NCBI GenBank assembly: GCA_037379345.1
Contig: CM074521.1
Location: forward strand, 35,240,704 to 35,304,703
Length of the DNA stretch: 64,000 nucleotides
Direction of reading: 5' to 3'
Origin: Perna viridis
Taxonomy: Eukaryota
This document shows positions 12,451 through 54,094 of the stretch, piece after piece (the stretch's first letter is position 1; each line of letters opens with the position of its first letter). The notes below the pieces were generated by a model, which was given only the letters and a program-made list of their open reading frames with translations, searched no databases and had not been told where the DNA came from. Both the position numbers and the translations under genes were made by a program.

Positions 12451-13316
12451 TGACTTAAATTCTAAATAACTTTTTTCTTGATAGTATTTTCATCTCTTTG
12501 CATGTAGGTATGCTTAGGCTACTAAAGTACTACATGATCAGCAAAAAAAATCCTTCTACACTTTTCTGTAAGCGTGTCAAATTTGCCGTTTCTGGAATGG
12601 CAAATTTGTCCCTCAGAGAGTTATTAGTTTGAAAAGAGACAAAAAGAAAACGCACTATTTTTTTTATACTTCCCATGTTGGTCAAGGATATGCACTGTTT
12701 TAGTTTTTCATAATAAAATTTTGTACTTTGATGTTATAAATTTTATAAACTATAGTTTATTAAATATAATATGTTCAAAATGTAGTTCATTGAATATTTA
12801 TATGTCCTACTGCATTCAACATTTCCATAAATCATGAGCTTAATATTTTACTTTCAAAACTTTTAGTAGAATCCCACTGACCATTAAGTCTAATGTAATT
12901 CCAGATCCAACTAAAATTTAGTAGGAATTGTTACAGTTGCTAATTGTACCTCCAACTTCAATTCAACATTTAATTCAGTAATTTATAACAAATAAATCAC
13001 GTGACAGCTTGATGTAGTACAATATCTTAGATTGTTTTGTCTGTGTAAATTTCATACAAGCAACCGAAGCATTTCGTAATCAGGCTTGAAACTAATAAAA
13101 TAATAACCTTGAAGGTGGTGACCGTTCATTCAACTTAAATAAATAAACAACAGTTGGTTTACTTTGTATATCTTCATTACCAAAGTCAATACGGACTGTT
13201 GGTTTACATTTCACTTGAATGTTAATATCAATTATAAATTCAACTACATCCTTTGCAACATAATAGCAGAAGGTGTTTATAAGGCTGTTCAAAATTTGAG
13301 AGATTTAGAAATGAAT

Positions 13317-14400
13317 TTACCAAGTTACAGTTACCCAGTTACATTCACAAAGTTACATTTATCTAGTTACAATTAACTAGCTACAGTTACCCAGTTACAG
13401 TTATCCAGTTACAGCTATCTAGTTACAGCTATCCAGTTACATTTACCCAGTTGCAGTTATCCAGTTATCCAGTTACAGTTACATTTACCCAATTACATTT
13501 ATCCAGTTACATTTACTCAGTTGCAGTTGATTATCCAGTTACAGTTACCCAGTTACATTTACCCAATTACAGTTGCCCAGCTACAGTTATCCAGTTAGTT
13601 ACACTTACATTTACCCAGTTGCAGTTATCCAGTTACAGTTATCCAGTTACATTTACCCAGTTGCAGTGTTCCAATTACAGTTACCCAGTTCCAGTTACAT
13701 TTTTCCAGTTACATTTACCGTTACAGTTACCCAGTTACAATTACATTTTCCCAGTTACAATTAACCAGTTACATATGCCCAGTAACAGTTATGCAGTTAC
13801 ATTTATCCAGGTGCAATTATCCGGTTACAGTTACAGTTACATTTACCCAATTACAGTTATCCAGTTACATTTACTCAGTAGCAGTTAATCATCTAGTTAC
13901 AGTTATGCAGTTACATTTACCCCGGTGCAATTATCCAGTTACAGTTACAGTTACATTTACCCAATAACAGTTATCCAGTTACATTTACTCAGTTGCAGTT
14001 AATCATCTATTTACAGTTATCCAGTTACAGTTACTCAGTTGCAGTTAATCATCTAGTTACAGTTACCGAGTTACATTTACCCAATTACAGTTATCCAGTT
14101 ACAGTTACATTTACCCAGTTATAGTTGCCCAGTTACAGTTATCCAGTTAGTTACACTTACATTTACCCAGTTGAAGTTATCCAGTTACAGTTATCCAAAT
14201 TACATTTACCCAGATGCAGTTATCCAATTACAGTTACCCAGTTACAGTTACAGTTACATTTTTTAAGTTACATTTACCGTTACAGTTAGATTTTCCCAGT
14301 TACAATGAGCCAGTTACAGTTACCCATTACAGTTACAGTTAACCAGTTACAGTTACAGTTAACCAGTTACAGTTACAGTTAACCAGTTACAGTTAACCAT
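13317..14400. repeat. Compound satellite of CAGTTA/CATTTA/CCCAGTTA/TCCAGTTA units (~1.1 kb)
   Basis: Directly visible tandem array. Confidence 0.95.
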
Positions 14401-18137: not shown

Positions 18138-19532
18138 TCATATAATATCTTCAAAAAATCTGCCATGAAGATTAAATGGTACAATCGTTGGTAAAATTGC
18201 CTTATTTATTGTTTCCATGGTAACGGCGTCTATAACCGCTAAGTAGCTTTGTTTGTGTTCACCATCTAAGATTGGTACAAGCAGATGACCATCGTCTTCT
18301 GACGTTGCTCCTGGTTTCGGTACAAACCAGGCCTCCGCAGGATAGTGATGTGGTATATGCCAGAATTTGTCCCCATTGTCGCTGCACATGTCTTTTTTAA
18401 CAATTGCCATTCTGCATAGAGTGACATTATCTATTTTCAAAACGTTTCCGTAAACAAAACAGTAGTCCTTGTATCTGTAACGTTCATTTATAGTAGGCAG
18501 ATCCAAGTAATTTGCAAATGGCACGGTCGGGGTTACGGTTACCGGCTTGTACATAACGGTGCGCTTTTTTACATTAATTAAATATCGTCTTAATTGAGCA
18601 TGCGCATCAAAGGAGTTTCTCTTAACGGGATCTCTTAATGTAGACAGTTCAAGGTTTTTCACAAAATCGGGGCTAGGATATGAAGAAATGTCTACAATTA
18701 TTTCATCATTATTTTCGAAAGCATTGATATGGTGCATTGTAAATATATTGTCAGTTTCTATAGTAACGACATTCTTTGTTTTCAAATTGATAACATACAC
18801 AGTTGTCGGCTCATCAGGCATCCAGTCAAGACCCTTGATTGGAGCGGCATATTTTACCATGTTGAAAACGTTCACAAAAAATGGTGCTGCGAAAATTATG
18901 ACGAAGTTCTCCGTTACGGAAAATGAGTGCATATAGGGAACGCGCTTCACTGGCCACTGTACAACCTCTTCACGATCAGTTGCCGATTTGATTCTAACTA
19001 ATGAAATTTTACTTTTCATATCAGGTATGAGGCTCACACTACTGACAAACGTAAAATGATTGGTTGTGCCATATTCAGGTAATGGATGCGCAGACGATAA
19101 GAAACTTAAAAAAGCAAAACCCCCTGAATGCCCAGGATGAGGCAGGACGGTGGTTATACTGGATATTGTATCGAGTGAATCGTGTGTGATTTGATAGATT
19201 TTCCAGAAGTCGTTTAACGCAACATATTCAAACGTTTTATCTTTTTTGTTGAAGAATCTGTAGACGTTTACATTCATGTTGTCAATGCCACGCACTAGTG
19301 CTTCCATCTTTTGAAACTCGTTAAATGGCGGCTGGACAGATTCAAACATTAAATACGGCGCAATATCGTTACTCGACAAAGAGTCTTTGTAAAAATTCGA
19401 TTTTAAAAACTTAGTGCTGAAAGATGCGGAACCGTTGCCATAGAATTTCCAGCTAGAGAGCTTTCCAAAGGCGTCAAATGAATGAGTGAAGTTCCTTTGT
19501 CCATTTTCAAACATACCAAATCCGTTTCTAAT
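18138..19532 (-). CDS. Carotenoid cleavage oxygenase (RPE65/BCO superfamily), exon 2 of 2
   Basis: Acceptor TCTTTCAG|ATT at 19532, phase 0; open to TGA at 18138. Four iron-binding His (SSAHP, YMHSF, TMHHINAFE, NLHGRF) plus RNG, DNMNVN, LPTINE and EDDG motifs. Confidence 0.93.
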   Translation of the reverse strand: MRNGFGMFENGQRNFTHSFDAFGKLSSWKFYGNGSASFSTKFLKSNFYKDSLSSNDIAPYLMFESVQPPFNEFQKMEALVRGIDNMNVNVYRFFNKKDKTFEYVALNDFWKIYQITHDSLDTISSITTVLPHPGHSGGFAFLSFLSSAHPLPEYGTTNHFTFVSSVSLIPDMKSKISLVRIKSATDREEVVQWPVKRVPYMHSFSVTENFVIIFAAPFFVNVFNMVKYAAPIKGLDWMPDEPTTVYVINLKTKNVVTIETDNIFTMHHINAFENNDEIIVDISSYPSPDFVKNLELSTLRDPVKRNSFDAHAQLRRYLINVKKRTVMYKPVTVTPTVPFANYLDLPTINERYRYKDYCFVYGNVLKIDNVTLCRMAIVKKDMCSDNGDKFWHIPHHYPAEAWFVPKPGATSEDDGHLLVPILDGEHKQSYLAVIDAVTMETINKAILPTIVPFNLHGRFFEDII

Positions 19533-19777
19533 CTGAAAGATCAATAAAAAGTTAAAAATTCCGATGGGTTGTACAAGTCTGCTGCGTACACAAATCCTAC
19601 ATCAAGTAAAATCGAACTTTATTAAACACTGGTATCGGTTTCAAAAGATAATGATGTACTATTGACAAAACTAATGGTACTAGTGAGTTAACATTCTACC
19701 TTTCAAATGGTCAGATTTCATATCAAAACATCCGATGGACTACCGTTTGTAAATCATCATTTAGAAATATACTGTAC

Positions 19778-28332: not shown

Positions 28333-28869
28333 TATGCAAGCCAAGGTGGACAAAAATGGTTATTTTCTAATATTAAAAAATTATTTGTTTTAATATTACA
28401 AATTCATTTCCTAATATTACAAATTTGATTTCTTATATCACAAAAAACTTTTTTAATATTAAAAAATCATTTTTTGATATTAGAAATTGATTTTCTAATA
28501 TTAGAAGATGGATTTGTTGTATTCAATTATGATTTTTTAATAGTAGAAAATCATTTTGTAATATTAAAAAATGTGACTGATTTTGCAATATTGCAAAGTG
28601 ATTTTCTAATATTACAAATTCATTTTCTAATATTACATATTCATTTTCTAATATTACAAATTCAATTTGTAATATTACAAAATGTGTGATGTTTTATAAT
28701 ATTACTTAATCAGGAATTTGTAATATTATAAAATGAATTTTTGATATTAAAAATATTTTCTAATATTAAAAAAAATGAATTTTTTAATATAACAAAATGA
28801 ATTTCTAATATTAAGAAATCTTTTCTAATATTACAAAATATTGATTTTTGTCCATTTTGGCTTGCCATA
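28333..28869. mobile_element. MITE with ~25-bp TIRs and internal ~21-bp tandem repeats
   Basis: Left TATGCAAGCCAAGGTGGACAAAAAT, right ATTTTTGTCCATTTTGGCTTGCCATA; interior TTTCTAATATTACAAATTCAT-like units. Confidence 0.8.
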
Positions 28870-39170: not shown

Positions 39171-40760
39171 GACGGGATAAATAATTGAAAGCTAAACACG
39201 GGGAACCAGTTGCTTTACATGGGTAACAGTCAAGGAAATAACGGTCGCTGATTGGGCAAGTCGCTTGTTTGGCTGAAATGAGGATGAGAATCCGAACTCG
39301 GCACAAGATGGCGGCTCTTAAACTAGGTAAACCCGAATAATAGAAAAGATAAGAAGACAGAAGAAAAAATATTCTTAACAGTTGAATATCACGTTGAATA
39401 TCTTAGATACACACAACTATCATAAAAATATTTTCGATATAGAAACGAGTTACAAAACTATGCAGAATCTACGGTGACACCGAAAATACACGATACAGCT
39501 ACATTTCGCGCACTTTTTACACTTCTCATACAGTAAGTCATTCTTTACTCACTGTGTGGCTTTACTGATGCACAATTTTAGTGAAACTTTACAAAAAAGG
39601 AAAGTCTCCATATGAAATTGCCCATGAAAATCAACTTATTCTCAAATATCATGAAAGTAAAACAATTAGACATTAACTTTTTGGTCAATATTTCTTCTTG
39701 CCAAAGTCCTCCTATACACAATGTACCTCTTGGTTTAAATTTAACTTTACTGAATTAAACGACACTATATAATGATATGCGTGAATAAATATAAATTAGA
39801 ACAGTTTTTTTTCACATTTATCGTAAACATATCTCGTAAACAACTTCATGGATTTGAATGAAACTTTATACAAAGCAAAAAACATGTGTTAATAGGAATA
39901 TATTAACTGTCTTATTACCCCCTCGCCAACAAAATTGCGATGGGATATAGTAACGCAACACTCCGTTCATAAGATATTTGTGAACACTCTACAACTAATG
40001 TCCTTCAAAAGCTCCACACAGAAGCAGATGTTCGTTTCCTCTGTTACTGACTGCTGCAGACAGGCCTTTCAAAATTCTCTAACATAATCTCAACCAAACG
40101 TCATTTTACAATTGAATAATAATGATGGACACTTTAAACTGGATATAAATTTCCAATTATCATATTTGTTGAGGTAAACATTTGTATTTTCACATTAATA
40201 CAACTAATACAACGTATCAGTTTAGTAAGTAACCTGTAAAGTTGAATATTTACTTTATTACTTTCACCAGGAGGAATTTCGTTCAGGGGATTACCAACTC
40301 TCATTGAGTAGTAATAGTTGTGACTCCTACATTTATCCCAGTATCTATTATAACAAAAGAAAACTAAGCTATCTCTTGTTACTGCTTCATTAATTCAATC
40401 ATTTCTTCACTTGATCAATTTAATTTTTGTTGTTGACAACTACATGTATAATAACATTTTCATCTTCAATTACATAGCAAGTATGTAACCGACAGAAATT
40501 TTGTCTTAAAATCGTAAAAATCAATATACTACTCTTAAACAACATTTAAAGCTAAGAGACGGCTATACATTTTTGGAAAAGCTACTACTTGTAATATATA
40601 AAATCTGGATCGGACAAATTCCGGACAAATCTTTCGACTTTTTTCCTCTGTGAAACGAGAAATGCCGAGTAGTACCGGTTCAGTAAAAGTTTTTTTATTA
40701 TACATCTTTGCGAACGCAAGTCATGTGTATTCCAGTAAGCAATTTAGGTAATTTAGTGAT

Positions 40761-41307
40761 TGGAGCCGAGTGATTGCGCAGTGGAAGCGATTTTACTATT
40801 GTTTGTTCAATTATGTAATTGGGAAGCTAGACGACGAGCACTATAACTTTTGTCTACGACAATGATTTCGATTAAAAACGATCTTTCTAATCCTACATTT
40901 ATTTACATAATATATACATTCACATATTTGAATACAATGTTTACCGATCGAACTCTGATTTCTAACTGACCATAATTATGTGCCGAATCTGAACAAATAA
41001 ACCCAATTAACCTAAATGTAACTCCCCAAATTACCAATTTGAACTTTTACCTTCTCATTGTCTGTCTGATACAGATCATTAAATATGTTAAACAGCTGAC
41101 CGCTATCAACATAATTAATTAGTTCCAAGTACTGGATGACCAGACAAACAACGACTATCTTATCTTAACTAGATCAAGGTTACAATTCGATTTCTATGTA
41201 AAATTATCAATGAAAATTAAAAGTGAAAAGAAATAAAACTAGCTAAAAAAACGTTATCTAAAAACATATGAAAATTGAAGTCAAAAAACATAATTGTCTT
41301 CTAAACA
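40761..41307 (-). repeat. 3' LTR
   Basis: Sense TGTTTAGAAG...GGCTCCA; G at 40821, C at 41110 (plus-strand bases). Confidence 0.97.
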
Positions 41308-41320
41308 TTCTCCCCTTCTT
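41308..41320 (-). other. Polypurine tract AAGAAGGGGAGAA (second copy 47650-47662)
   Basis: Abuts the LTR start on the element sense strand. Confidence 0.9.
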
Positions 41321-41483
41321 GATTGAGCATAGCCAATCAACAACAACAAAAAAAAATAAAAAAATAAAACGAAATAAATGAAAATATTCGATAGTCTATA
41401 ATTCATAACTATAGCGATAGTCCATGTAAACGGAGAAAATTAAAGTCACTGCTTCTTGATAGTTATTGCACGTTAAATTTAAG

Positions 41484-44400
41484 TCAATTAACTTCCAACG
41501 GGCACAGTTTGGTAATTGGTCGTACTAAAACAGTTTGTCCAAGTCTAATTTTGGCGACTCGAACATGATTGTCCTTTCCTGAGTACACCTCGATGATTCT
41601 GCCTAACGGCCAATGTCCTCGTGGAAGATTGGGATTCATTACAAGCACAATGTCATTGGGTTTCAAGTCCTTTTCAGTTTCAGTCCATTTATGTATTCTA
41701 TTTAGTCCTGGTAGCCACTCTTTAATCCATCTTTGCCAGAAATGTCTAACTAATTCCTGGATTCGACGCCATCGTTTACGTGGGTTAAAGTCAGTTGTAT
41801 CAACGGTCTCTGGTGCAAACGCTCCTCCGATTTGTCCATGTAGGAAATGGTTAGGCGTTAACGGTAAGTCATCTCTGGAATCTGCCGACTGGTATGTAAG
41901 CGGACGCGAATTAATGACTGCTTCGGCACCAATAAATGCAGTTAACAACTCTTCGTCAGTAATGTCCGCATTTCCTAATATGGAATAAATTGCTTTCTTT
42001 GCGGCTTTTATCATCGTTTCATGTACGCCTCCAAAGTGAGGCGCGAGAGGAGGATTGAAATGCCACTTCACACCTCTATTCGACGTATTGTCACATATTT
42101 TGTCTTTATCTAATAGTGAAACTAGTTCCTGTAATTCCTTGTTTGCACCGATAAAGTTTGTTCCATTGTCCGAAACAACTTCTTGTGGCATTCCACGTCT
42201 ATTGGCCATTCTATAAAACGCATTAAGAAAGGAGTCAGTATCTAGTCCAAAAGCAACTTCCAAGTGCACGGCTCTCGATGCCAAGCACGTAAATAAACAC
42301 AAATATTTCTTTTCACGTCTCTTTCCTCGACCCTGCACTGTTATAAATGGACCACCATAGTCCACTGCGATACGCGCAAATGCATGTAATGGCGTTCTGA
42401 AACGAATGTCCGGTAAAGGAGCCATTACTTGCTCTGCTGTTTTCGCCTTTCTCTTACGACACGTATAACACTCATTTTCACACTCGCGTATTTCCTCTCT
42501 GGCGGATATAATCCAATATTTAGATGACATCATGGATAATGTTAGATTTGTCCCGCACACATGTCTACCTTTGTCGTGGTAGTATTTCACGATTAGTCTT
42601 GTCACGCGATTTTTCCTCGGAAGTATTATAGGATACATAGTGTCATACGGCAAGAAATCTGCATGTTCAAGACGCCCGTCACATCTAAGTAGTCCATATT
42701 CATTGATTTTCGGTTTTAAACTTAGAAGTTTACTGCCCGACGGTAACTGTTTTTCTTTCATAATTGAATTATAATCCTCTAGAAATTCACACCTCTGCGC
42801 GTCGCGCACGATTTGAGTCTCTGCCTCTTCGATTTCATCTACACTAAGTCCACCTTTTCTACGCAAGTCACGCGTAAGTCTACAATTTTCAACGAATCTG
42901 TTAACCCATGAACAAACACGAACGAGTCTCAACCAGCTCGAATAATGTTCTGGATTTAAACGCCAATCCTTCTCCGATACAGACACAATTTTCATTGTAA
43001 ATATTTCACTGTCCTTGGCAGTCTCTAATTTAGCACCCGATTTAGCGCTTTTAACTTCTTTTTCGCACGATAGTCCTTTGTTAATACGACATTCAGGCCA
43101 GTCACATTCTTGTTTTGATAGAAAGTCTGGACCTTCCCACCATATAATGTCCGATTTCAGCTGAATAACAGTCCTGCCCCTCAATACCAGATCCGCGGGG
43201 TTTTCTTTCGTTGGTACGTAGCGCCACTGTGTTGGACTCGAAGCCCTGTGTATCTCTCCAATGCGGTTCGCGACAAACGGCTTGAAGTCTCTGCTTCGAC
43301 CACGTATCCACCATAAAACATCCATAGAATCTGACCAAAACACAAGTTGTTCCGTCGGTATTCTAAGCGGCTCCGCAATGGAAAGTGCAAGTTTTAATCC
43401 TAAAACAGCAGCCATCAACTCTAATCTCGGAATACTAACTGCAATAATTGGTGCAACTTTCGATTTCGATGCAATAATCCTTGTCGAAATTAATCCACTC
43501 TTATACTCGATTCTCATATACGAAACGGCACCATATCCTTCTTCGGACGAATCAACGAATGTATGAATATTAGTATGAATTATTTCCTCATTTTGATCCA
43601 CAACTTGTAAACACCTTTGAACTTTGATTTGATTCAAATCATTTAGCTCTTTAAACCAAGATTTTGCTTTACATATTAAATTTTCATCTAGTAAATTATC
43701 CCAATTATATCCAGTTAACCACATTTCTTGAAGCAACATTTTAGCTCTCACTATATACGGCGAAATAAATCCAAGAGGATCGAATAACATAGCCACTTTT
43801 CTCAAGAAATTTCGCTTTGTGTACACAAAGTCCTCGCCTGGAGGATTCGCTTTGAATGTGAATAAATCTACATTCGCTTTCCACATAATTCCCAAGGTTT
43901 TCACAGTAGGCAAACTACCATCATCAAGATTAACTTCGGACGCGCGATCTTCCTTCGGAATAAAATCTAACACTGCCTCTGAATTTGATAACCATTTGCG
44001 TGCGTACATTCCAGCTTTCCACCATAAATCCGACAATTGATTATACAATAATATTCCCTCATGTTCATTCATTACTGAATCCATGCTATCATCCATGTAA
44101 GTCGAATGAAGTACTGTTTCCGCAGCTCGCGGATGCGACGCTTTCATGCACTCGGCATGCTTCTGCACAACATATTGGGCCTGAAATGGCGAAGAATTAA
44201 CTCCGAAGACAACACTATTGAATTCATATTCATCCGGTTCTCGATTTAATTCCATTGAGCGCCACAAAAACCTGTGAAATGGCCTATCAACCGGAGCTAT
44301 ATTTATCCTCAGATACATTTCAGCAATATCACAAACTAACGCAACTGGATTCTTTCTAAATCGCAATAGAACATCAAATAAATCCCTCTGTAATTTTGGA

Positions 44401-44849
44401 CCTTGATGAATGACACTATTTAACGATGCATTTTCACACTTTGCAGACGCGTCGAATACGATCCTTGTCTTTGTAGTTTCCTTGTCTGGTCTTACAACTG
44501 GAAAGTGCGGTAAATACCATTTTCCCGATTTCGGCACCTCTTCTTCAGCTGGCACTTTACGGACGTAACCTTTGTCAAGATACTTTTCAATAGTTTTAAC
44601 GTAATCGTTCTTCACAGTCGCATCCTTAATTAACCTCTTCTCAGTATTCTCAAGTCTGCGATAAGCCATATTATAATTGTCCGGTAAATTAGCAGGGTCA
44701 CTCTTCCAAGGCAAGGCTACTTCATAGCGACCATCTTTGAAACACATTGATTGTTCAACGATTTTGACAGCTTGTTTATCTTCGGCACTTAACATCTCAT
44801 TCTTATCGATAGGTTTGACGTGTTCAATGTCCCAGAATTTCTTTAACAA
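41484..44849 (-). CDS. pol: BEL/Pao Pol (RT-RNase H-integrase), unit 1
   Basis: 1121 aa; YLPHFPV, RIVFDAS, YMDD, FVDSSEEGYG, ELMAA, NPAD, HHCC, and DDE motifs VDYGGP/SDNGTNF/HETM. Confidence 0.95.
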   Translation of the reverse strand: MLKKFWDIEHVKPIDKNEMLSAEDKQAVKIVEQSMCFKDGRYEVALPWKSDPANLPDNYNMAYRRLENTEKRLIKDATVKNDYVKTIEKYLDKGYVRKVPAEEEVPKSGKWYLPHFPVVRPDKETTKTRIVFDASAKCENASLNSVIHQGPKLQRDLFDVLLRFRKNPVALVCDIAEMYLRINIAPVDRPFHRFLWRSMELNREPDEYEFNSVVFGVNSSPFQAQYVVQKHAECMKASHPRAAETVLHSTYMDDSMDSVMNEHEGILLYNQLSDLWWKAGMYARKWLSNSEAVLDFIPKEDRASEVNLDDGSLPTVKTLGIMWKANVDLFTFKANPPGEDFVYTKRNFLRKVAMLFDPLGFISPYIVRAKMLLQEMWLTGYNWDNLLDENLICKAKSWFKELNDLNQIKVQRCLQVVDQNEEIIHTNIHTFVDSSEEGYGAVSYMRIEYKSGLISTRIIASKSKVAPIIAVSIPRLELMAAVLGLKLALSIAEPLRIPTEQLVFWSDSMDVLWWIRGRSRDFKPFVANRIGEIHRASSPTQWRYVPTKENPADLVLRGRTVIQLKSDIIWWEGPDFLSKQECDWPECRINKGLSCEKEVKSAKSGAKLETAKDSEIFTMKIVSVSEKDWRLNPEHYSSWLRLVRVCSWVNRFVENCRLTRDLRRKGGLSVDEIEEAETQIVRDAQRCEFLEDYNSIMKEKQLPSGSKLLSLKPKINEYGLLRCDGRLEHADFLPYDTMYPIILPRKNRVTRLIVKYYHDKGRHVCGTNLTLSMMSSKYWIISAREEIRECENECYTCRKRKAKTAEQVMAPLPDIRFRTPLHAFARIAVDYGGPFITVQGRGKRREKKYLCLFTCLASRAVHLEVAFGLDTDSFLNAFYRMANRRGMPQEVVSDNGTNFIGANKELQELVSLLDKDKICDNTSNRGVKWHFNPPLAPHFGGVHETMIKAAKKAIYSILGNADITDEELLTAFIGAEAVINSRPLTYQSADSRDDLPLTPNHFLHGQIGGAFAPETVDTTDFNPRKRWRRIQELVRHFWQRWIKEWLPGLNRIHKWTETEKDLKPNDIVLVMNPNLPRGHWPLGRIIEVYSGKDNHVRVAKIRLGQTVLVRPITKLCPLEVN

Positions 44850-45532
44850 TAAATCGTATTCATTTGATTCATTGATACTTCCGACGAAGTATTGTAATTG
44901 TAATGTGTCAGATTGTCATCAGTGTCTGGATTCCCAATACATGTCCATCCAAGGGGAGTTAATCTTGCTATCGGCTCGCCTGGTTTACCACGAATATCCT
45001 TGTACGAATAATGTAAATCGGCATAATCCAAACCAATTAACATATCAACTTTAGGCTTCGAACCTATGTCCGGAAACTGTATGCCTTTCAAATGTTCCCA
45101 CTTAGAACTGTGCTGTCGCCAATCTATGGGTTTCATATTCCCGGTCACCTTGTTTGTCGTGAAAGCTACGATTCGATTTCTTGTTCTGCCATTCACACTT
45201 TCAATTTCGAACTCAACTGGCATTGTTTCAAACGATTCACATTCATCATTTAAAACATTTACTGTCATAGTTTGTAACTGTCCATGGAGACCTAACTCTG
45301 CGGCTACATCCGAATTAATATAAGTCTTTGTACTAGCATCATCGAGTAGTGCGTTCACTTTCAACTTTCGATTACCAGTTCTGACAATTACTGGTACAGT
45401 TCTTAAAATTACATTATTTACCTTTTCTCGGTCTTTAGCGATCATTGTTCTGTTTTGACGCTCCCCTTCAGTGTTCGGCTCTGTAACACTTTTGAATATT
45501 TCTGAATGTCTGTGCACATTGTTACTGTCCAC
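44843..45532 (-). CDS. BEL/Pao aspartic protease region, unit 1 (frameshifted from gag and pol)
   Basis: ALLDDAS, VDMLIGLD, ARLTPLGW. Confidence 0.9.
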   Translation of the reverse strand: MDSNNVHRHSEIFKSVTEPNTEGERQNRTMIAKDREKVNNVILRTVPVIVRTGNRKLKVNALLDDASTKTYINSDVAAELGLHGQLQTMTVNVLNDECESFETMPVEFEIESVNGRTRNRIVAFTTNKVTGNMKPIDWRQHSSKWEHLKGIQFPDIGSKPKVDMLIGLDYADLHYSYKDIRGKPGEPIARLTPLGWTCIGNPDTDDNLTHYNYNTSSEVSMNQMNTIYC

Positions 45533-46989
45533 TCGCCTGCGTTGATTAAAATTGTTTCATAATGTAACATTCTATTATGAAGCTCCCTACAACCATCGAT
45601 TCCACACGTTCTACTTCTTGGACACCTTTGTCCGAGGTGATTATCTCCTAAACAACGATAGCAAAGTTTATGCTCCTTTGCAACATTCCACCTTTTTTGC
45701 AAATCCATTCTTTTGAACATTTCGCAGTTCCACACACCATGCGGCTCATTACATACTTTACATAGTCGTCTACGAGCATTTCTATCTGTGTTTTCAGTGT
45801 TACTGACAAAAGTTCTGTTTGTACCCGGTCTCGGACGCCTGACGTCATTGTTGTTAAAGTTGTCTAATCCTCGGACAGTTTCGCTCGCGATAGTTTGGAA
45901 TTCCGCTTCCTGAATTATCCACTCCCTTAACGATTCGACTGATTCCGGTCTCCGTTTCTCGAATACCCATCTATGGTACTGCGCAAGCATAGACTCGGGT
46001 AACTTTTGCTGTAATTTATTGTATAACGATCCATTACCAAGTTCTTCACTACGACCGGCATCCCGTAGATTCACAACAGTTACGTCAATTAAATCTGCGA
46101 ATTTGTCAATGTCTCTTGAATTTCCTACTCGAATTGGTTTGAAAGTTTCTAACTCTTCTATATAACGTGCGATCTGTCGTCGTTTACCTCCATATTTACG
46201 CTCCAATCTGTCTTTTGCAGCCACGTACGCTGATTCCGAATATCCAAGATTTTCAACCACTTTTAATGCTTCTCCCGATAAGTATTGTCTTAACTGTAAA
46301 AGTTTATATTCAGGTGTAGCCGGCGCTTTGTCCACACACGACATGAAGGCGGCCCTCCATGCTTCATAACTTCGTTTGTCACCCGAAAATATTGGAATCG
46401 CAATTCGTTTCAACTGCTTCCACATGTCATTTCCGATTTCGATACGATTGTCACTTTGAACTTCAACTGGTATGTCACGATTAATCCGATCTGGTAATTG
46501 TCCAATGTCATCTTTAATTTCACGTCTATCGCCACTATCGTCGGTAACTGGAACATCTTGTCTATCTATTTCTTCTCTATAGTTCGATGCACGCGATGAA
46601 ACACTAGAACCGTCTTTTGTACTTATCAAAAAGTTTTGACATTCATTTATCGCTTCAGAAAATTCTGATTCCATTTGTTCTAGTTCATTAGCTGTTTTCC
46701 GTACATTTAATATTTCGTTTCTCTTCTTATATTCGTCATATAATAATTCCATAATGTTCATAGCATTTTCTTCTGCATTTGTAAGTTTTTGTCTTATTTC
46801 TTTGATGATATCACGATCTGGAATTTCGTCCGGTTCATCGATTAATTGGAGAAGGTTATGTCTCAATTTTGTGAAGGCCGATTTAGCTTTTGCCTTGTCC
46901 TTTTTAATATCCTCGATTTTTTCGTTTTGTTGTTCGATCATTGTCTCTTCCATTTTTTCGTTTCTAAGATCTAGCTCCCAATTGCTCAT
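45442..46989 (-). CDS. gag: BEL/Pao Gag, unit 1
   Basis: IPIFSGD...KLLQLRQYLSGEA capsid-like region and three knuckles (CKVCNEPHGVWNC, CYRCLGDNHLGQRC, CGIDGCRELHNRMLH); first ATG at 46989. Confidence 0.93.
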   Translation of the reverse strand: MSNWELDLRNEKMEETMIEQQNEKIEDIKKDKAKAKSAFTKLRHNLLQLIDEPDEIPDRDIIKEIRQKLTNAEENAMNIMELLYDEYKKRNEILNVRKTANELEQMESEFSEAINECQNFLISTKDGSSVSSRASNYREEIDRQDVPVTDDSGDRREIKDDIGQLPDRINRDIPVEVQSDNRIEIGNDMWKQLKRIAIPIFSGDKRSYEAWRAAFMSCVDKAPATPEYKLLQLRQYLSGEALKVVENLGYSESAYVAAKDRLERKYGGKRRQIARYIEELETFKPIRVGNSRDIDKFADLIDVTVVNLRDAGRSEELGNGSLYNKLQQKLPESMLAQYHRWVFEKRRPESVESLREWIIQEAEFQTIASETVRGLDNFNNNDVRRPRPGTNRTFVSNTENTDRNARRRLCKVCNEPHGVWNCEMFKRMDLQKRWNVAKEHKLCYRCLGDNHLGQRCPRSRTCGIDGCRELHNRMLHYETILINAGEWTVTMCTDIQKYSKVLQSRTLKGSVKTEQ

Positions 46990-47079
46990 TTTCGATTGAC
47001 GATCACTAAATGTCAATATTAATTCCGATTATGAATTATAATTTCGATACGATTTCGATAAGTCCGTTTTGTCCATATT

Positions 47080-47097
47080 AACCACGCTCTGCTACCA
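47080..47097 (-). other. Primer-binding site for initiator tRNA-Met, unit 1
   Basis: Sense TGGTAGCAGAGCGTGGTT, 5 nt after the LTR; TGGTAGCAGAG is the complement of the eukaryotic tRNA-iMet 3' end. Confidence 0.9.
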
Positions 47098-47102
47098 GAA
47101 AA

Positions 47103-47649
47103 TGGAGCCGAGTGATTGCGCAGTGGAAGCGATTTTACTATTGTTTGTTCAATTATGTAATTTGGAAGCTAGACGACGAGCACTATAACTTTTGTCTACG
47201 ACAATGATTTCGATTAAAAACGATCTTTCTAATCCTACATTTATTTACATAATATATACATTCACATATTTGAATACAATGTTTACCGATCGAACTCTGA
47301 TTTCTAACTGACCATAATTATGTGCCGAATCTGAACAAATAAACCCAATTAACCTAAATGTAACTCCCCAAATTACCAATTTGAACTTTTACCTTCTCAT
47401 TGTCTGTCTGATACAGATCATTAAATATGTTAAACAGCTGACCGCTATCAACATAATTAATTAGTTCCAAGTACTGGATGACCAGACAAACAACGACTAT
47501 CTTATCTTAACTAGATCAAGGTTACAATTCGATTTCTATGTAAAATTATCAATGAAAATTAAAAGTGAAAAGAAATAAAACTAGCTAAAAAAACGTTATC
47601 TAAAAACATATGAAAATTGAAGTCAAAAAACATAATTGTCTTCTAAACA
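47103..47649 (-). repeat. Shared middle LTR (recombinant)
   Basis: T at 47163 like the right LTR, C at 47452 like the left LTR. Confidence 0.97.
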
Positions 47650-47825
47650 TTCTCCCCTTCTTGATTGAGCATAGCCAATCAACAACAACAAAAAAAAATA
47701 AAAAAATAAAACGAAATAAATGAAAATATTCGATAGTCTATAATTCATAACTATAGCGATAGTCCATGTAAACGGAGAAAATTAAAGTCACTGCTTCTTG
47801 ATAGTTATTGCACGTTAAATTTAAG

Positions 47826-50800
47826 TCAATTAACTTCCAACGGGCACAGTTTGGTAATTGGTCGTACTAAAACAGTTTGTCCAAGTCTAATTTTGGCGAC
47901 TCGAACATGATTGTCCTTTCCTGAGTACACCTCGATGATTCTGCCTAACGGCCAATGTCCTCGTGGAAGATTGGGATTCATTACAAGCACAATGTCATTG
48001 GGTTTCAAGTCCTTTTCAGTTTCAGTCCATTTATGTATTCTATTTAGTCCTGGTAGCCACTCTTTAATCCATCTTTGCCAGAAATGTCTAACTAATTCCT
48101 GGATTCGACGCCATCGTTTACGTGGGTTAAAGTCAGTTGTATCAACGGTCTCTGGTGCAAACGCTCCTCCGATTTGTCCATGTAGGAAATGGTTAGGCGT
48201 TAACGGTAAGTCATCTCTGGAATCTGCCGACTGGTATGTAAGCGGACGCGAATTAATGACTGCTTCGGCACCAATAAATGCAGTTAACAACTCTTCGTCA
48301 GTAATGTCCGCATTTCCTAATATGGAATAAATTGCTTTCTTTGCGGCTTTTATCATCGTTTCATGTACGCCTCCAAAGTGAGGCGCGAGAGGAGGATTGA
48401 AATGCCACTTCACACCTCTATTCGACGTATTGTCACATATTTTGTCTTTATCTAATAGTGAAACTAGTTCCTGTAATTCCTTGTTTGCACCGATAAAGTT
48501 TGTTCCATTGTCCGAAACAACTTCTTGTGGCATTCCACGTCTATTGGCCATTCTATAAAACGCATTAAGAAAGGAGTCAGTATCTAGTCCAAAAGCAACT
48601 TCCAAGTGCACGGCTCTCGATGCCAAGCACGTAAATAAACACAAATATTTCTTTTCACGTCTCTTTCCTCGACCCTGCACTGTTATAAATGGACCACCAT
48701 AGTCCACTGCGATACGCGCAAATGCATGTAATGGCGTTCTGAAACGAATGTCCGGTAAAGGAGCCATTACTTGCTCTGCTGTTTTCGCCTTTCTCTTACG
48801 ACACGTATAACACTCATTTTCACACTCGCGTATTTCCTCTCTGGCGGATATAATCCAATATTTAGATGACATCATGGATAATGTTAGATTTGTCCCGCAC
48901 ACATGTCTACCTTTGTCGTGGTAGTATTTCACGATTAGTCTTGTCACGCGATTTTTCCTCGGAAGTATTATAGGATACATAGTGTCATACGGCAAGAAAT
49001 CTGCATGTTCAAGACGCCCGTCACATCTAAGTAGTCCATATTCATTGATTTTCGGTTTTAAACTTAGAAGTTTACTGCCCGACGGTAACTGTTTTTCTTT
49101 CATAATTGAATTATAATCCTCTAGAAATTCACACCTCTGCGCGTCGCGCACGATTTGAGTCTCTGCCTCTTCGATTTCATCTACACTAAGTCCACCTTTT
49201 CTACGCAAGTCACGCGTAAGTCTACAATTTTCAACGAATCTGTTAACCCATGAACAAACACGAACGAGTCTCAACCAGCTCGAATAATGTTCTGGATTTA
49301 AACGCCAATCCTTCTCCGATACAGACACAATTTTCATTGTAAATATTTCACTGTCCTTGGCAGTCTCTAATTTAGCACCCGATTTAGCGCTTTTAACTTC
49401 TTTTTCGCACGATAGTCCTTTGTTAATACGACATTCAGGCCAGTCACATTCTTGTTTTGATAGAAAGTCTGGACCTTCCCACCATATAATGTCCGATTTC
49501 AGCTGAATAACAGTCCTGCCCCTCAATACCAGATCCGCGGGGTTTTCTTTCGTTGGTACGTAGCGCCACTGTGTTGGACTCGAAGCCCTGTGTATCTCTC
49601 CAATGCGGTTCGCGACAAACGGCTTGAAGTCTCTGCTTCGACCACGTATCCACCATAAAACATCCATAGAATCTGACCAAAACACAAGTTGTTCCGTCGG
49701 TATTCTAAGCGGCTCCGCAATGGAAAGTGCAAGTTTTAATCCTAAAACAGCAGCCATCAACTCTAATCTCGGAATACTAACTGCAATAATTGGTGCAACT
49801 TTCGATTTCGATGCAATAATCCTTGTCGAAATTAATCCACTCTTATACTCGATTCTCATATACGAAACGGCACCATATCCTTCTTCGGACGAATCAACGA
49901 ATGTATGAATATTAGTATGAATTATTTCCTCATTTTGATCCACAACTTGTAAACACCTTTGAACTTTGATTTGATTCAAATCATTTAGCTCTTTAAACCA
50001 AGATTTTGCTTTACATATTAAATTTTCATCTAGTAAATTATCCCAATTATATCCAGTTAACCACATTTCTTGAAGCAACATTTTAGCTCTCACTATATAC
50101 GGCGAAATAAATCCAAGAGGATCGAATAACATAGCCACTTTTCTCAAGAAATTTCGCTTTGTGTACACAAAGTCCTCGCCTGGAGGATTCGCTTTGAATG
50201 TGAATAAATCTACATTCGCTTTCCACATAATTCCCAAGGTTTTCACAGTAGGCAAACTACCATCATCAAGATTAACTTCGGACGCGCGATCTTCCTTCGG
50301 AATAAAATCTAACACTGCCTCTGAATTTGATAACCATTTGCGTGCGTACATTCCAGCTTTCCACCATAAATCCGACAATTGATTATACAATAATATTCCC
50401 TCATGTTCATTCATTACTGAATCCATGCTATCATCCATGTAAGTCGAATGAAGTACTGTTTCCGCAGCTCGCGGATGCGACGCTTTCATGCACTCGGCAT
50501 GCTTCTGCACAACATATTGGGCCTGAAATGGCGAAGAATTAACTCCGAAGACAACACTATTGAATTCATATTCATCCGGTTCTCGATTTAATTCCATTGA
50601 GCGCCACAAAAACCTGTGAAATGGCCTATCAACCGGAGCTATATTTATCCTCAGATACATTTCAGCAATATCACAAACTAACGCAACTGGATTCTTTCTA
50701 AATCGCAATAGAACATCAAATAAATCCCTCTGTAATTTTGGACCTTGATGAATGACACTATTTAACGATGCATTTTCACACTTTGCAGACGCGTCGAATA

Positions 50801-51191
50801 CGATCCTTGTCTTTGTAGTTTCCTTGTCTGGTCTTACAACTGGAAAGTGCGGTAAATACCATTTTCCCGATTTCGGCACCTCTTCTTCAGCTGGCACTTT
50901 ACGGACGTAACCTTTGTCAAGATACTTTTCAATAGTTTTAACGTAATCGTTCTTCACAGTCGCATCCTTAATTAACCTCTTCTCAGTATTCTCAAGTCTG
51001 CGATAAGCCATATTATAATTGTCCGGTAAATTAGCAGGGTCACTCTTCCAAGGCAAGGCTACTTCATAGCGACCATCTTTGAAACACATTGATTGTTCAA
51101 CGATTTTGACAGCTTGTTTATCTTCGGCACTTAACATCTCATTCTTATCGATAGGTTTGACGTGTTCAATGTCCCAGAATTTCTTTAACAA
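47826..51191 (-). CDS. pol: BEL/Pao Pol, unit 2
   Basis: Translation appears identical to 41484-44849. Confidence 0.95.
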   Translation of the reverse strand: MLKKFWDIEHVKPIDKNEMLSAEDKQAVKIVEQSMCFKDGRYEVALPWKSDPANLPDNYNMAYRRLENTEKRLIKDATVKNDYVKTIEKYLDKGYVRKVPAEEEVPKSGKWYLPHFPVVRPDKETTKTRIVFDASAKCENASLNSVIHQGPKLQRDLFDVLLRFRKNPVALVCDIAEMYLRINIAPVDRPFHRFLWRSMELNREPDEYEFNSVVFGVNSSPFQAQYVVQKHAECMKASHPRAAETVLHSTYMDDSMDSVMNEHEGILLYNQLSDLWWKAGMYARKWLSNSEAVLDFIPKEDRASEVNLDDGSLPTVKTLGIMWKANVDLFTFKANPPGEDFVYTKRNFLRKVAMLFDPLGFISPYIVRAKMLLQEMWLTGYNWDNLLDENLICKAKSWFKELNDLNQIKVQRCLQVVDQNEEIIHTNIHTFVDSSEEGYGAVSYMRIEYKSGLISTRIIASKSKVAPIIAVSIPRLELMAAVLGLKLALSIAEPLRIPTEQLVFWSDSMDVLWWIRGRSRDFKPFVANRIGEIHRASSPTQWRYVPTKENPADLVLRGRTVIQLKSDIIWWEGPDFLSKQECDWPECRINKGLSCEKEVKSAKSGAKLETAKDSEIFTMKIVSVSEKDWRLNPEHYSSWLRLVRVCSWVNRFVENCRLTRDLRRKGGLSVDEIEEAETQIVRDAQRCEFLEDYNSIMKEKQLPSGSKLLSLKPKINEYGLLRCDGRLEHADFLPYDTMYPIILPRKNRVTRLIVKYYHDKGRHVCGTNLTLSMMSSKYWIISAREEIRECENECYTCRKRKAKTAEQVMAPLPDIRFRTPLHAFARIAVDYGGPFITVQGRGKRREKKYLCLFTCLASRAVHLEVAFGLDTDSFLNAFYRMANRRGMPQEVVSDNGTNFIGANKELQELVSLLDKDKICDNTSNRGVKWHFNPPLAPHFGGVHETMIKAAKKAIYSILGNADITDEELLTAFIGAEAVINSRPLTYQSADSRDDLPLTPNHFLHGQIGGAFAPETVDTTDFNPRKRWRRIQELVRHFWQRWIKEWLPGLNRIHKWTETEKDLKPNDIVLVMNPNLPRGHWPLGRIIEVYSGKDNHVRVAKIRLGQTVLVRPITKLCPLEVN

Positions 51192-51874
51192 TAAATCGTA
51201 TTCATTTGATTCATTGATACTTCCGACGAAGTATTGTAATTGTAATGTGTCAGATTGTCATCAGTGTCTGGATTCCCAATACATGTCCATCCAAGGGGAG
51301 TTAATCTTGCTATCGGCTCGCCTGGTTTACCACGAATATCCTTGTACGAATAATGTAAATCGGCATAATCCAAACCAATTAACATATCAACTTTAGGCTT
51401 CGAACCTATGTCCGGAAACTGTATGCCTTTCAAATGTTCCCACTTAGAACTGTGCTGTCGCCAATCTATGGGTTTCATATTCCCGGTCACCTTGTTTGTC
51501 GTGAAAGCTACGATTCGATTTCTTGTTCTGCCATTCACACTTTCAATTTCGAACTCAACTGGCATTGTTTCAAACGATTCACATTCATCATTTAAAACAT
51601 TTACTGTCATAGTTTGTAACTGTCCATGGAGACCTAACTCTGCGGCTACATCCGAATTAATATAAGTCTTTGTACTAGCATCATCGAGTAGTGCGTTCAC
51701 TTTCAACTTTCGATTACCAGTTCTGACAATTACTGGTACAGTTCTTAAAATTACATTATTTACCTTTTCTCGGTCTTTAGCGATCATTGTTCTGTTTTGA
51801 CGCTCCCCTTCAGTGTTCGGCTCTGTAACACTTTTGAATATTTCTGAATGTCTGTGCACATTGTTACTGTCCAC
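51185..51874 (-). CDS. BEL/Pao aspartic protease region, unit 2
   Basis: Translation appears identical to unit 1. Confidence 0.9.
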   Translation of the reverse strand: MDSNNVHRHSEIFKSVTEPNTEGERQNRTMIAKDREKVNNVILRTVPVIVRTGNRKLKVNALLDDASTKTYINSDVAAELGLHGQLQTMTVNVLNDECESFETMPVEFEIESVNGRTRNRIVAFTTNKVTGNMKPIDWRQHSSKWEHLKGIQFPDIGSKPKVDMLIGLDYADLHYSYKDIRGKPGEPIARLTPLGWTCIGNPDTDDNLTHYNYNTSSEVSMNQMNTIYC

Positions 51875-53331
51875 TCGCCTGCGTTGATTAAAATTGTTTC
51901 ATAATGTAACATTCTATTATGAAGCTCCCTACAACCATCGATTCCACACGTTCTACTTCTTGGACACCTTTGTCCGAGGTGATTATCTCCTAAACAACGA
52001 TAGCAAAGTTTATGCTCCTTTGCAACATTCCACCTTTTTTGCAAATCCATTCTTTTGAACATTTCGCAGTTCCACACACCATGCGGCTCATTACATACTT
52101 TACATAGTCGTCTACGAGCATTTCTATCTGTGTTTTCAGTGTTACTGACAAAAGTTCTGTTTGTACCCGGTCTCGGACGCCTGACGTCATTGTTGTTAAA
52201 GTTGTCTAATCCTCGGACAGTTTCGCTCGCGATAGTTTGGAATTCCGCTTCCTGAATTATCCACTCCCTTAACGATTCGACTGATTCCGGTCTCCGTTTC
52301 TCGAATACCCATCTATGGTACTGCGCAAGCATAGACTCGGGTAACTTTTGCTGTAATTTATTGTATAACGATCCATTACCAAGTTCTTCACTACGACCGG
52401 CATCCCGTAGATTCACAACAGTTACGTCAATTAAATCTGCGAATTTGTCAATGTCTCTTGAATTTCCTACTCGAATTGGTTTGAAAGTTTCTAACTCTTC
52501 TATATAACGTGCGATCTGTCGTCGTTTACCTCCATATTTACGCTCCAATCTGTCTTTTGCAGCCACGTACGCTGATTCCGAATATCCAAGATTTTCAACC
52601 ACTTTTAATGCTTCTCCCGATAAGTATTGTCTTAACTGTAAAAGTTTATATTCAGGTGTAGCCGGCGCTTTGTCCACACACGACATGAAGGCGGCCCTCC
52701 ATGCTTCATAACTTCGTTTGTCACCCGAAAATATTGGAATCGCAATTCGTTTCAACTGCTTCCACATGTCATTTCCGATTTCGATACGATTGTCACTTTG
52801 AACTTCAACTGGTATGTCACGATTAATCCGATCTGGTAATTGTCCAATGTCATCTTTAATTTCACGTCTATCGCCACTATCGTCGGTAACTGGAACATCT
52901 TGTCTATCTATTTCTTCTCTATAGTTCGATGCACGCGATGAAACACTAGAACCGTCTTTTGTACTTATCAAAAAGTTTTGACATTCATTTATCGCTTCAG
53001 AAAATTCTGATTCCATTTGTTCTAGTTCATTAGCTGTTTTCCGTACATTTAATATTTCGTTTCTCTTCTTATATTCGTCATATAATAATTCCATAATGTT
53101 CATAGCATTTTCTTCTGCATTTGTAAGTTTTTGTCTTATTTCTTTGATGATATCACGATCTGGAATTTCGTCCGGTTCATCGATTAATTGGAGAAGGTTA
53201 TGTCTCAATTTTGTGAAGGCCGATTTAGCTTTTGCCTTGTCCTTTTTAATATCCTCGATTTTTTCGTTTTGTTGTTCGATCATTGTCTCTTCCATTTTTT
53301 CGTTTCTAAGATCTAGCTCCCAATTGCTCAT
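51784..53331 (-). CDS. gag: BEL/Pao Gag, unit 2
   Basis: Translation appears identical to unit 1. Confidence 0.93.
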   Translation of the reverse strand: MSNWELDLRNEKMEETMIEQQNEKIEDIKKDKAKAKSAFTKLRHNLLQLIDEPDEIPDRDIIKEIRQKLTNAEENAMNIMELLYDEYKKRNEILNVRKTANELEQMESEFSEAINECQNFLISTKDGSSVSSRASNYREEIDRQDVPVTDDSGDRREIKDDIGQLPDRINRDIPVEVQSDNRIEIGNDMWKQLKRIAIPIFSGDKRSYEAWRAAFMSCVDKAPATPEYKLLQLRQYLSGEALKVVENLGYSESAYVAAKDRLERKYGGKRRQIARYIEELETFKPIRVGNSRDIDKFADLIDVTVVNLRDAGRSEELGNGSLYNKLQQKLPESMLAQYHRWVFEKRRPESVESLREWIIQEAEFQTIASETVRGLDNFNNNDVRRPRPGTNRTFVSNTENTDRNARRRLCKVCNEPHGVWNCEMFKRMDLQKRWNVAKEHKLCYRCLGDNHLGQRCPRSRTCGIDGCRELHNRMLHYETILINAGEWTVTMCTDIQKYSKVLQSRTLKGSVKTEQ

Positions 53332-53421
53332 TTTCGATTGACGATCACTAAATGTCAATATTAATTCCGATTATGAATTATAATTTCGATACGATTTCGA
53401 TAAGTCCGTTTTGTCCATATT

Positions 53422-53439
53422 AACCACGCTCTGCTACCA
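53422..53439 (-). other. Primer-binding site for initiator tRNA-Met, unit 2
   Basis: Plus-strand AACCACGCTCTGCTACCA is a tRNA-like 3' end including CCA. Confidence 0.9.
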
Positions 53440-53444
53440 GAAAA

Positions 53445-53991
53445 TGGAGCCGAGTGATTGCGCAGTGGAAGCGATTTTACTATTGTTTGTTCAATTATGT
53501 AATTTGGAAGCTAGACGACGAGCACTATAACTTTTGTCTACGACAATGATTTCGATTAAAAACGATCTTTCTAATCCTACATTTATTTACATAATATATA
53601 CATTCACATATTTGAATACAATGTTTACCGATCGAACTCTGATTTCTAACTGACCATAATTATGTGCCGAATCTGAACAAATAAACCCAATTAACCTAAA
53701 TGTAACTCCCCAAATTACCAATTTGAACTTTTACCTTCTCATTGTCTGTCTGATACAGATCATTAAATATGTTAAACAGCTGACCGCTATCAAAATAATT
53801 AATTAGTTCCAAGTACTGGATGACCAGACAAACAACGACTATCTTATCTTAACTAGATCAAGGTTACAATTCGATTTCTATGTAAAATTATCAATGAAAA
53901 TTAAAAGTGAAAAGAAATAAAACTAGCTAAAAAAACGTTATCTAAAAACATATGAAAATTGAAGTCAAAAAACATAATTGTCTTCTAAACA
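53445..53991 (-). repeat. 5' LTR
   Basis: T at 53505, A at 53794; followed by the GTGAT TSD. Confidence 0.97.
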
Positions 53992-54094
53992 GTGATTGCA
54001 CGAATTGAAAGCGGAAAGTGAGTGCCATCTTTTATATTTGTAAAATATGATCCGAAGTTTTGTTATGCAAAACATATTCTCTTTTCAATTGCAG

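Follow-up and report, generated by a model that had tools for sequence, protein, structure and literature searches.

The LTR end of a BEL/Pao retrotransposon in the window (the whole 64,000-nt stretch of DNA analysed here) carries, judged from its sequence, the 5' part of a tRNA in antisense, and this tRNA is the one matched by the element's own primer-binding site (PBS). Sequence comparison indicates that this tRNA match is genuine, specific to the primer used, and recurs in two BEL/Pao lineages that are far apart. The antisense LTR end probably acts as an additional binding site for the primer, gripping the opened tRNA at its D arm, and recurrence and primer specificity are what point to its usefulness.

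Structure and classification of the element

The element lies on the minus strand (40761-53991) as a tandem of the form LTR-internal-LTR-internal-LTR, and one 5-bp target duplication (40756-40760 and 53992-53996) bounds the whole tandem. The 5' LTR (TG...CA; 53445-53991), the middle LTR common to both tandem units (47103-47649) and the 3' LTR (40761-41307), all on the minus strand, are each 547 nt long, repeat with a period of 6342 and differ from one another at 1-2 bases, and the two 5795-nt internal parts are identical. A polypurine tract stands before the LTR at 47650-47659 (minus strand; second copy 41308-41317). Gag-pol is encoded on the minus strand at 47826-53370 in three frames of 528, 237 and 1143 aa, with an identical second unit at 41484-47028. 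It is broken into three frames in both window units; open frames in other copies are 1193-1608 aa long.

The gag-pol Pfam domains are DUF1759, aspartic protease, RT, Peptidase_A17, integrase and DUF5641, with DUF1759, A17, H2C2 and DUF5641 above the Pfam cut-offs and protease, RT and rve below them. The order protease-RT-RNase H-integrase, with DUF1759 gag, Peptidase_A17 and DUF5641, is that of BEL/Pao elements, and TG...CA LTRs, PBS, polypurine tract and 5-bp target duplication agree with BEL/Pao structure. Three Cys-His knuckles, a feature of BEL/Pao gag, were read by eye in the gag translation. The window element is a BEL/Pao LTR retrotransposon, as the initial annotation had it. Its home is possibly the Sailor lineage of mollusc BEL/Pao elements (Sparrow/Sinbad/Surcouf; PMC6238403), with named relatives from oyster, coral, jellyfish, sea cucumber and abalone. 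The window also holds minisatellites of 14 nt and 21 nt and a 487-aa open frame of the RPE65 family, located among 13280-14330, 28366-28830 and 18138-19601.

A TATA-like motif (53595-53600, minus strand) and an AATAAA (53582-53587, minus strand) stand at LTR positions 392 and 405, which places the tRNA-like motif (LTR 519-544) in the putative U5.

The U5-PBS junction and host tRNA-iMet

The junction (53422-53473, read on the plus strand) occurs again at 47080-47131, and its LTR part also at 40764-40789, so that the motif is carried by the middle LTR (47106-47131) and the 3' LTR (40764-40789) as well. On the minus strand, the PBS (53422-53439; second copy 47080-47097) is complementary to the 3' 18 nt of tRNA-iMet, matching the end of the host tRNA gene at 15/15 positions plus CCA. 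Next to it lies an 8-nt gap (53440-53447, minus strand), consisting of a 5-nt spacer (53440-53444) and the last 3 nt of the LTR. The U5 acceptor block (53448-53456, minus strand) is complementary to tRNA nt 1-9 at 8/9 positions, with a mismatch at 53451 that is identical in all three window LTRs. Between tRNA nt 9 and nt 10 the complementarity is interrupted by a 3-nt insert (53457-53459, minus strand), and the U5 D-arm block (53460-53473, minus strand) complements tRNA nt 10-23 at 14/14 positions. The element RNA hence reads complement of nt 23-10, three extra bases, complement of nt 9-1, 8-nt gap and 18-nt PBS, with a total of 22/23 over tRNA-iMet nt 1-23. The reference host tRNA-iMet gene (L023 1492-1563) belongs to a tandem array on G000:C6 and carries the sequence that the initial annotation had given for eukaryotic tRNA-iMet; the proposed complementarity to both tRNA ends, bulge and gap included, was thus borne out.

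By chance, an exact 14-mer match within 90 nt of a PBS is expected about 1e-6 times. G000 contains 56 occurrences of the 14-nt block, and the 30 loci read comprise 20 LTR ends of the window family and 10 tRNA-Met(CAT) genes or variants. No other sense-strand match to tRNA-iMet of at least 9 nt was found in L104. A Rfam tRNA search scored 63 candidates in three places. A permuted tRNA gene was rejected, with nt 24-57 of the tRNA gene missing from the junction and no tRNA gene found in the window by ARAGORN. Four contig sets of guessed RNA origin span the junction and are uninformative on strand, start and level. The host tRNA genes form tandem arrays, an iMet array with two Lys(TTT) per 1091 nt (G000:C6:28.99-29.01 Mb) and a His array that has Lys(CTT) in every 927 nt (C9:4.45-4.53 Mb).

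Co-folding, proposed as a check, gave strong predicted pairing. The D-arm block has a predicted duplex energy of -30.5 kcal/mol; the value over nt 1-24 is -39 to -44 kcal/mol, and loss of the D hairpin costs about 4 kcal/mol. Because these predicted energies outweigh the D-hairpin loss, the complex would form once the PBS opens the tRNA. Acceptor block 53448-53456 is complementary to the PBS as well, and the predicted U5-PBS hairpin of the free RNA has -11.7 kcal/mol in the window and -16.4 kcal/mol in a 23/23 copy. The 9-nt part can therefore be read as a hairpin arm, as already noted in the initial annotation. It is very unlikely that only this hairpin matters and that the tRNA match is a by-product of the mutual complementarity of the tRNA's two ends, since this would leave unexplained both the 14-15-nt D-arm block, the part shared by the related family L246, and the tRNA-His matches at nt 7-36 described below.

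The D-arm block includes most of the tRNA's A-box, and an antisense RNA polymerase III A-box had been offered as an alternative. The first box bases, however, deviate from the tRNA gene (one in the window, two in L246), and bases past the box are kept. The sole site resembling the B-box consensus is imperfect and lies 15 nt after the block, not a workable distance, and a T4 run follows the block directly. L246 has no B-box within 216 nt, and His blocks at nt 22-36 fall outside the A-box, all of which makes this alternative extremely unlikely. A Pol III type-2 promoter or tRNA-derived SINE head was also rejected, as no A-box plus B-box precedes the T run.

Variation within the window family

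A motif-free query gathered 34 distinct LTR ends, one truncated copy being left out. The match to tRNA-iMet is 23/23 in 19/34 LTR ends, the D-arm block is perfect in 24/34 and the acceptor block (9/9) in 27/34. No within-family constraint on the motif was seen (pi 0.060 vs 0.066 at other G/C sites of the LTR), and 66% of 23-nt LTR windows show diversity as low as that of the motif. This variation is probably mostly post-insertion decay. For one locus, L302 (G000:C14:3378028-3381353), a contig with a depth of 62-318 in two guessed-RNA runs links about 640 nt that resemble the L302 flank with the LTR U5 end.

iMet-primed relatives

A gag alignment search retrieved 82 loci outside G000, with an iMet PBS upstream in 51 and none in 31 (many of which lie at a contig end). 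Among these loci, a long match near the PBS is present only in L246/L248, one family from another host. It is an exact 15/15 complement of tRNA-iMet nt 10-24, includes the window's 14 nt and lies 66 nt upstream of the PBS; the gap to the PBS is 51 nt and the acceptor block is missing. The gag of L246/L248 is 47-55% identical to that of the window, the LTRs are unalignable outside the D-arm block, and homology of the 13 nt after the D block is not significant (p 0.33). Duplex-energy z-scores are insensitive here (L246, p 0.06). In the trees, the window family is joined by a sister family in which the D-arm block is missing, and L246 is not resolved as sister. A single origin of the two iMet families with a D-arm block was found in 0/200 bootstrap trees and is not rejected by the AU test (p 0.056), both based on 28/52 rows; one further tree was a quick tree.

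Altogether 24 iMet-primed U5 families, grouped by hand, were surveyed. A tRNA-iMet match at p<=0.01 is present in 4/24, namely the window family, L246, the sister family (nt 37-46) and L243, and decoy tRNAs reach this level in 0-1 of the same families each; the combined p of the set is 0.052. The sister-family match (L105, L118, L165; 8-10 nt, p 0.005-0.02 per copy) is suggestive only, as decoy matches run to 8 nt and the survey covered 24 families, and the L243 match (p 0.010) may be chance. The initial annotation had asked whether related families conserve the motif. The D-arm block does recur in L246/L248, but 20/24 iMet-primed families lack a match and constraint within the window family was not seen. 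The match is therefore genuine, though patchy in its distribution.

Searches of viral contigs gave one weak locus, 19 candidate pattern matches and no relatives, and genome contigs gave two loci with no PBS within reach. Further families were encountered. A short-LTR family (L116, L140) has weak copia-type domains, a 12-nt iMet PBS and no U5 match. Two BEL gag contigs inside a bacterial symbiont assembly (L271, L272) are probably host contamination. The young BEL families L091, L093, L094, L097 and L103 (e.g., G000:C3:9076800-9086700) have near-identical LTR pairs, with no TGG-type PBS directly after the 5' LTR.

His-primed families

G000 contains BEL families with a His PBS, plus a tRNA-His array. 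The gag of His-primed families shares 22-24% identity with that of the window and about 27-55% with those of two reference His families. The sample consisted of 16 PBS sites with a gag match and 9 from 60 further loci, 6 sites without a gag match being dropped. The sites were grouped by eye into 14 families, and the 70 nt before the PBS were scored. A match to tRNA-His (nt 7-45) at p<=0.05 was found in 6/14 families and is lacking in 8/14. Six decoy tRNAs matched 1-2/14 each on the same families, and control windows upstream and downstream matched 1/14 each. The Fisher p of 0.0004 overstates independence, because the families share ancestry and were grouped by eye. The proposed check, whether the complementarity switches with the primer, thus came out in favor of a switch. 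Since the LTR-end copy follows each family's own primer tRNA, these elements likely hold the primer by its 5' half in addition to its tail. With the 20 iMet-primed families and these eight lacking a match, however, the tRNA match is dispensable for the lineage.

The strongest matches are long. L064 is complementary to tRNA-His nt 16-30 at 15/15 positions (chance 3e-6). L074 has a 27-nt run against nt 10-36 with 22 Watson-Crick pairs, 3 G-U pairs and 2 mismatches, including a 13/13 exact stretch (chance 4e-5), and L061 matches nt 7-19 at 12/13 positions. The His family gap to the PBS is 2-21 nt, and tRNA nt 1-6 are uncovered. With gaps of this range and of 51 nt in L246, the 8-nt gap and the fixed +8 checkpoint proposed in the initial annotation do not generalize. 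The match of His family H6 (nt 31-45), in another register and inside a terminal hairpin, may be chance. Elsewhere in G000, a His-PBS family without a BEL gag match (L349, L351, L352; C5:12930125, C8:41660739, C8:41666917) has, in 2/3 copies, an exact 12-13-nt stretch complementary to tRNA-His nt 5-17, located about 208 nt before the PBS. L348 and L353 have 10-nt tRNA-His complements upstream of a His-type PBS (nt 22-31 at -144 and nt 27-36 at -81, respectively).

The tRNA-matching segment is present in both LTRs in the five His families checked, and farther upstream the LTRs of these families align barely, if at all (p 0.03-0.93, 10 pairs). Five His families and the window family have a nearly common register, in which tRNA nt n is found about n-5 to n+11 bases before the PBS. 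Taken together, U5 end and PBS of these six families resemble the complement of a circularly closed tRNA. This register bears on the suggestion that the binding partner is a free 5' tRNA fragment, or a tRNA that is primed on the other genome copy (a dimer bridge), instead of the cis primer. The exact coverage of nt 1-23 in the window would suit a fragment, and tRNA-bridged dimers were proposed for Ty1/Ty3, with later data to the contrary. The His families, however, cover internal windows (16-30, 24-36) in cis register relative to the PBS, and we consider this suggestion improbable.

Origin and proposed role of the antisense LTR end

The common register can also be explained by capture with refreshing and without selection: RT would jump from U5 minus-strand DNA to the tethered tRNA, copy part of its 5' half and return, so that the LTR end is periodically overwritten and the complex forms but is merely tolerated. 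Exact sub-windows that differ from family to family, the patchy distribution and the lack of within-family constraint are consistent with such events. Two His blocks begin at nt 36, next to position 37 of tRNA-His, which may be m1G37. In the iMet-primed elements, the window's insert falls between nt 9 and nt 10 and the L246 block extends no further than nt 10, and G9 is m1G in human tRNA-iMet, whose listed modifications are m1G9, m2G10, m2G26 and t6A37 (PMC7293042). These nt 9/10 boundaries fit a pairing stop at a blocked base and RT stalling equally, and capture with later refreshing therefore stays the main rival. Against it, repeated events at one place in unalignable LTRs would be demanded, no matching capture was seen downstream of the PBS, and neutrality is unlikely for a GC-rich duplex of 23 bp that RT would meet 8 nt beyond the primer. 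Unselected capture is accordingly possible rather than probable.

Under the preferred reading of a second primer-binding site, free element RNA would fold the U5-PBS hairpin, and the tRNA would swap strands with it, its 3' end pairing with the PBS and its displaced 5' strand and D arm with U5. Winding would not be barred, given two free tRNA ends. Such pairing would favor capture or packaging of the cognate tRNA, and initiation would be slowed because RT must displace the tRNA soon after the start (8 nt in the window family). The copy was probably born by RT copying the tRNA, and selection for pairing would explain its retention. A more elaborate scenario, which we regard as doubtful, is repeated self-writing, in which BEL/Pao elements template-switch onto the tethered primer and inscribe an antisense 5'-half copy at the LTR end. 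U5 and PBS would then form the complement of a circularised tRNA, a self-renewing clamp that selects the primer, gates initiation and is re-tuned upon primer change.

Comparison with known primer contacts and implications

Extra segments that pair with the T and D arms of tRNA-iMet are described for Ty1 and Ty3 (PMC4974528, PMC5371799, PMC3681743), and in Ty1 the D-arm-complementary segments aid primer packaging and initiation. Both share with the window element the tRNA-iMet primer and an extra segment complementary to the D arm. The acceptor PBS, however, is about 8-10 nt in Ty1/Ty3 and 18 nt in the window element, and the extra segments lie 3' of the PBS in Ty1 and at the RNA 3' end in Ty3, whereas that of the window is located in U5, upstream of the PBS, where RT has to pass. 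In addition, the Ty1 tRNA 5' end stays unpaired according to a review, whereas the window U5 complements tRNA nt 1-9.

In FIV, the U5 inverted repeat reportedly pairs with the 5' end of the primer tRNA, a result attributed to Miller in 2001. The window family is complementary to 8-9 of the first 9 nt in the same manner; L246 and the His families are not. FIV initiation is believed to be regulated by tRNA 5' nucleotides and a U5 stem-loop (PMC12509431). FIV is a lentivirus, however, and the window match spans the whole D arm (23 nt) and follows primer identity across families. Pairing of U5 with the TpsiC arm is described for the HIV-1 PAS, HIV-2 and an avian retrovirus (PMC3185550), where, as in the window, a U5 segment upstream of the PBS contacts the primer outside its 3' 18 nt. 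The U5 targets there are the T arm or the anticodon loop, and a long antisense 5'-half copy does not figure in the cited account. For BEL/Pao elements, a literature search outside older subscription papers, repeat-library notes and supplements found no description of this kind of pairing; 'tRNA' and 'primer binding' are absent from the main text of PMC6238403, and 'tRNA' and 'PBS' from the Sinbad paper (PMC554778). On these comparisons, the LTR end would best be read as an extended primer-binding element akin to the pairing of the Ty1/Ty3 D-arm segments and of FIV U5, but at a new location.

A few yeast elements and retroviruses are known to make extended primer-template contacts, although proof was hard there. 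Annotation of such LTR ends calls for some caution, as reads that resemble tRNA, and likewise A-box calls, can stem from the element. The window case is long, exact and primer-specific, and it comes from a superfamily with little-studied reverse transcription. Its natural variants, with two primers, several tRNA windows and families without a match, make the pairing testable with short RNAs, and the finding bears on the uptake of tRNA sequence by LTR ends.
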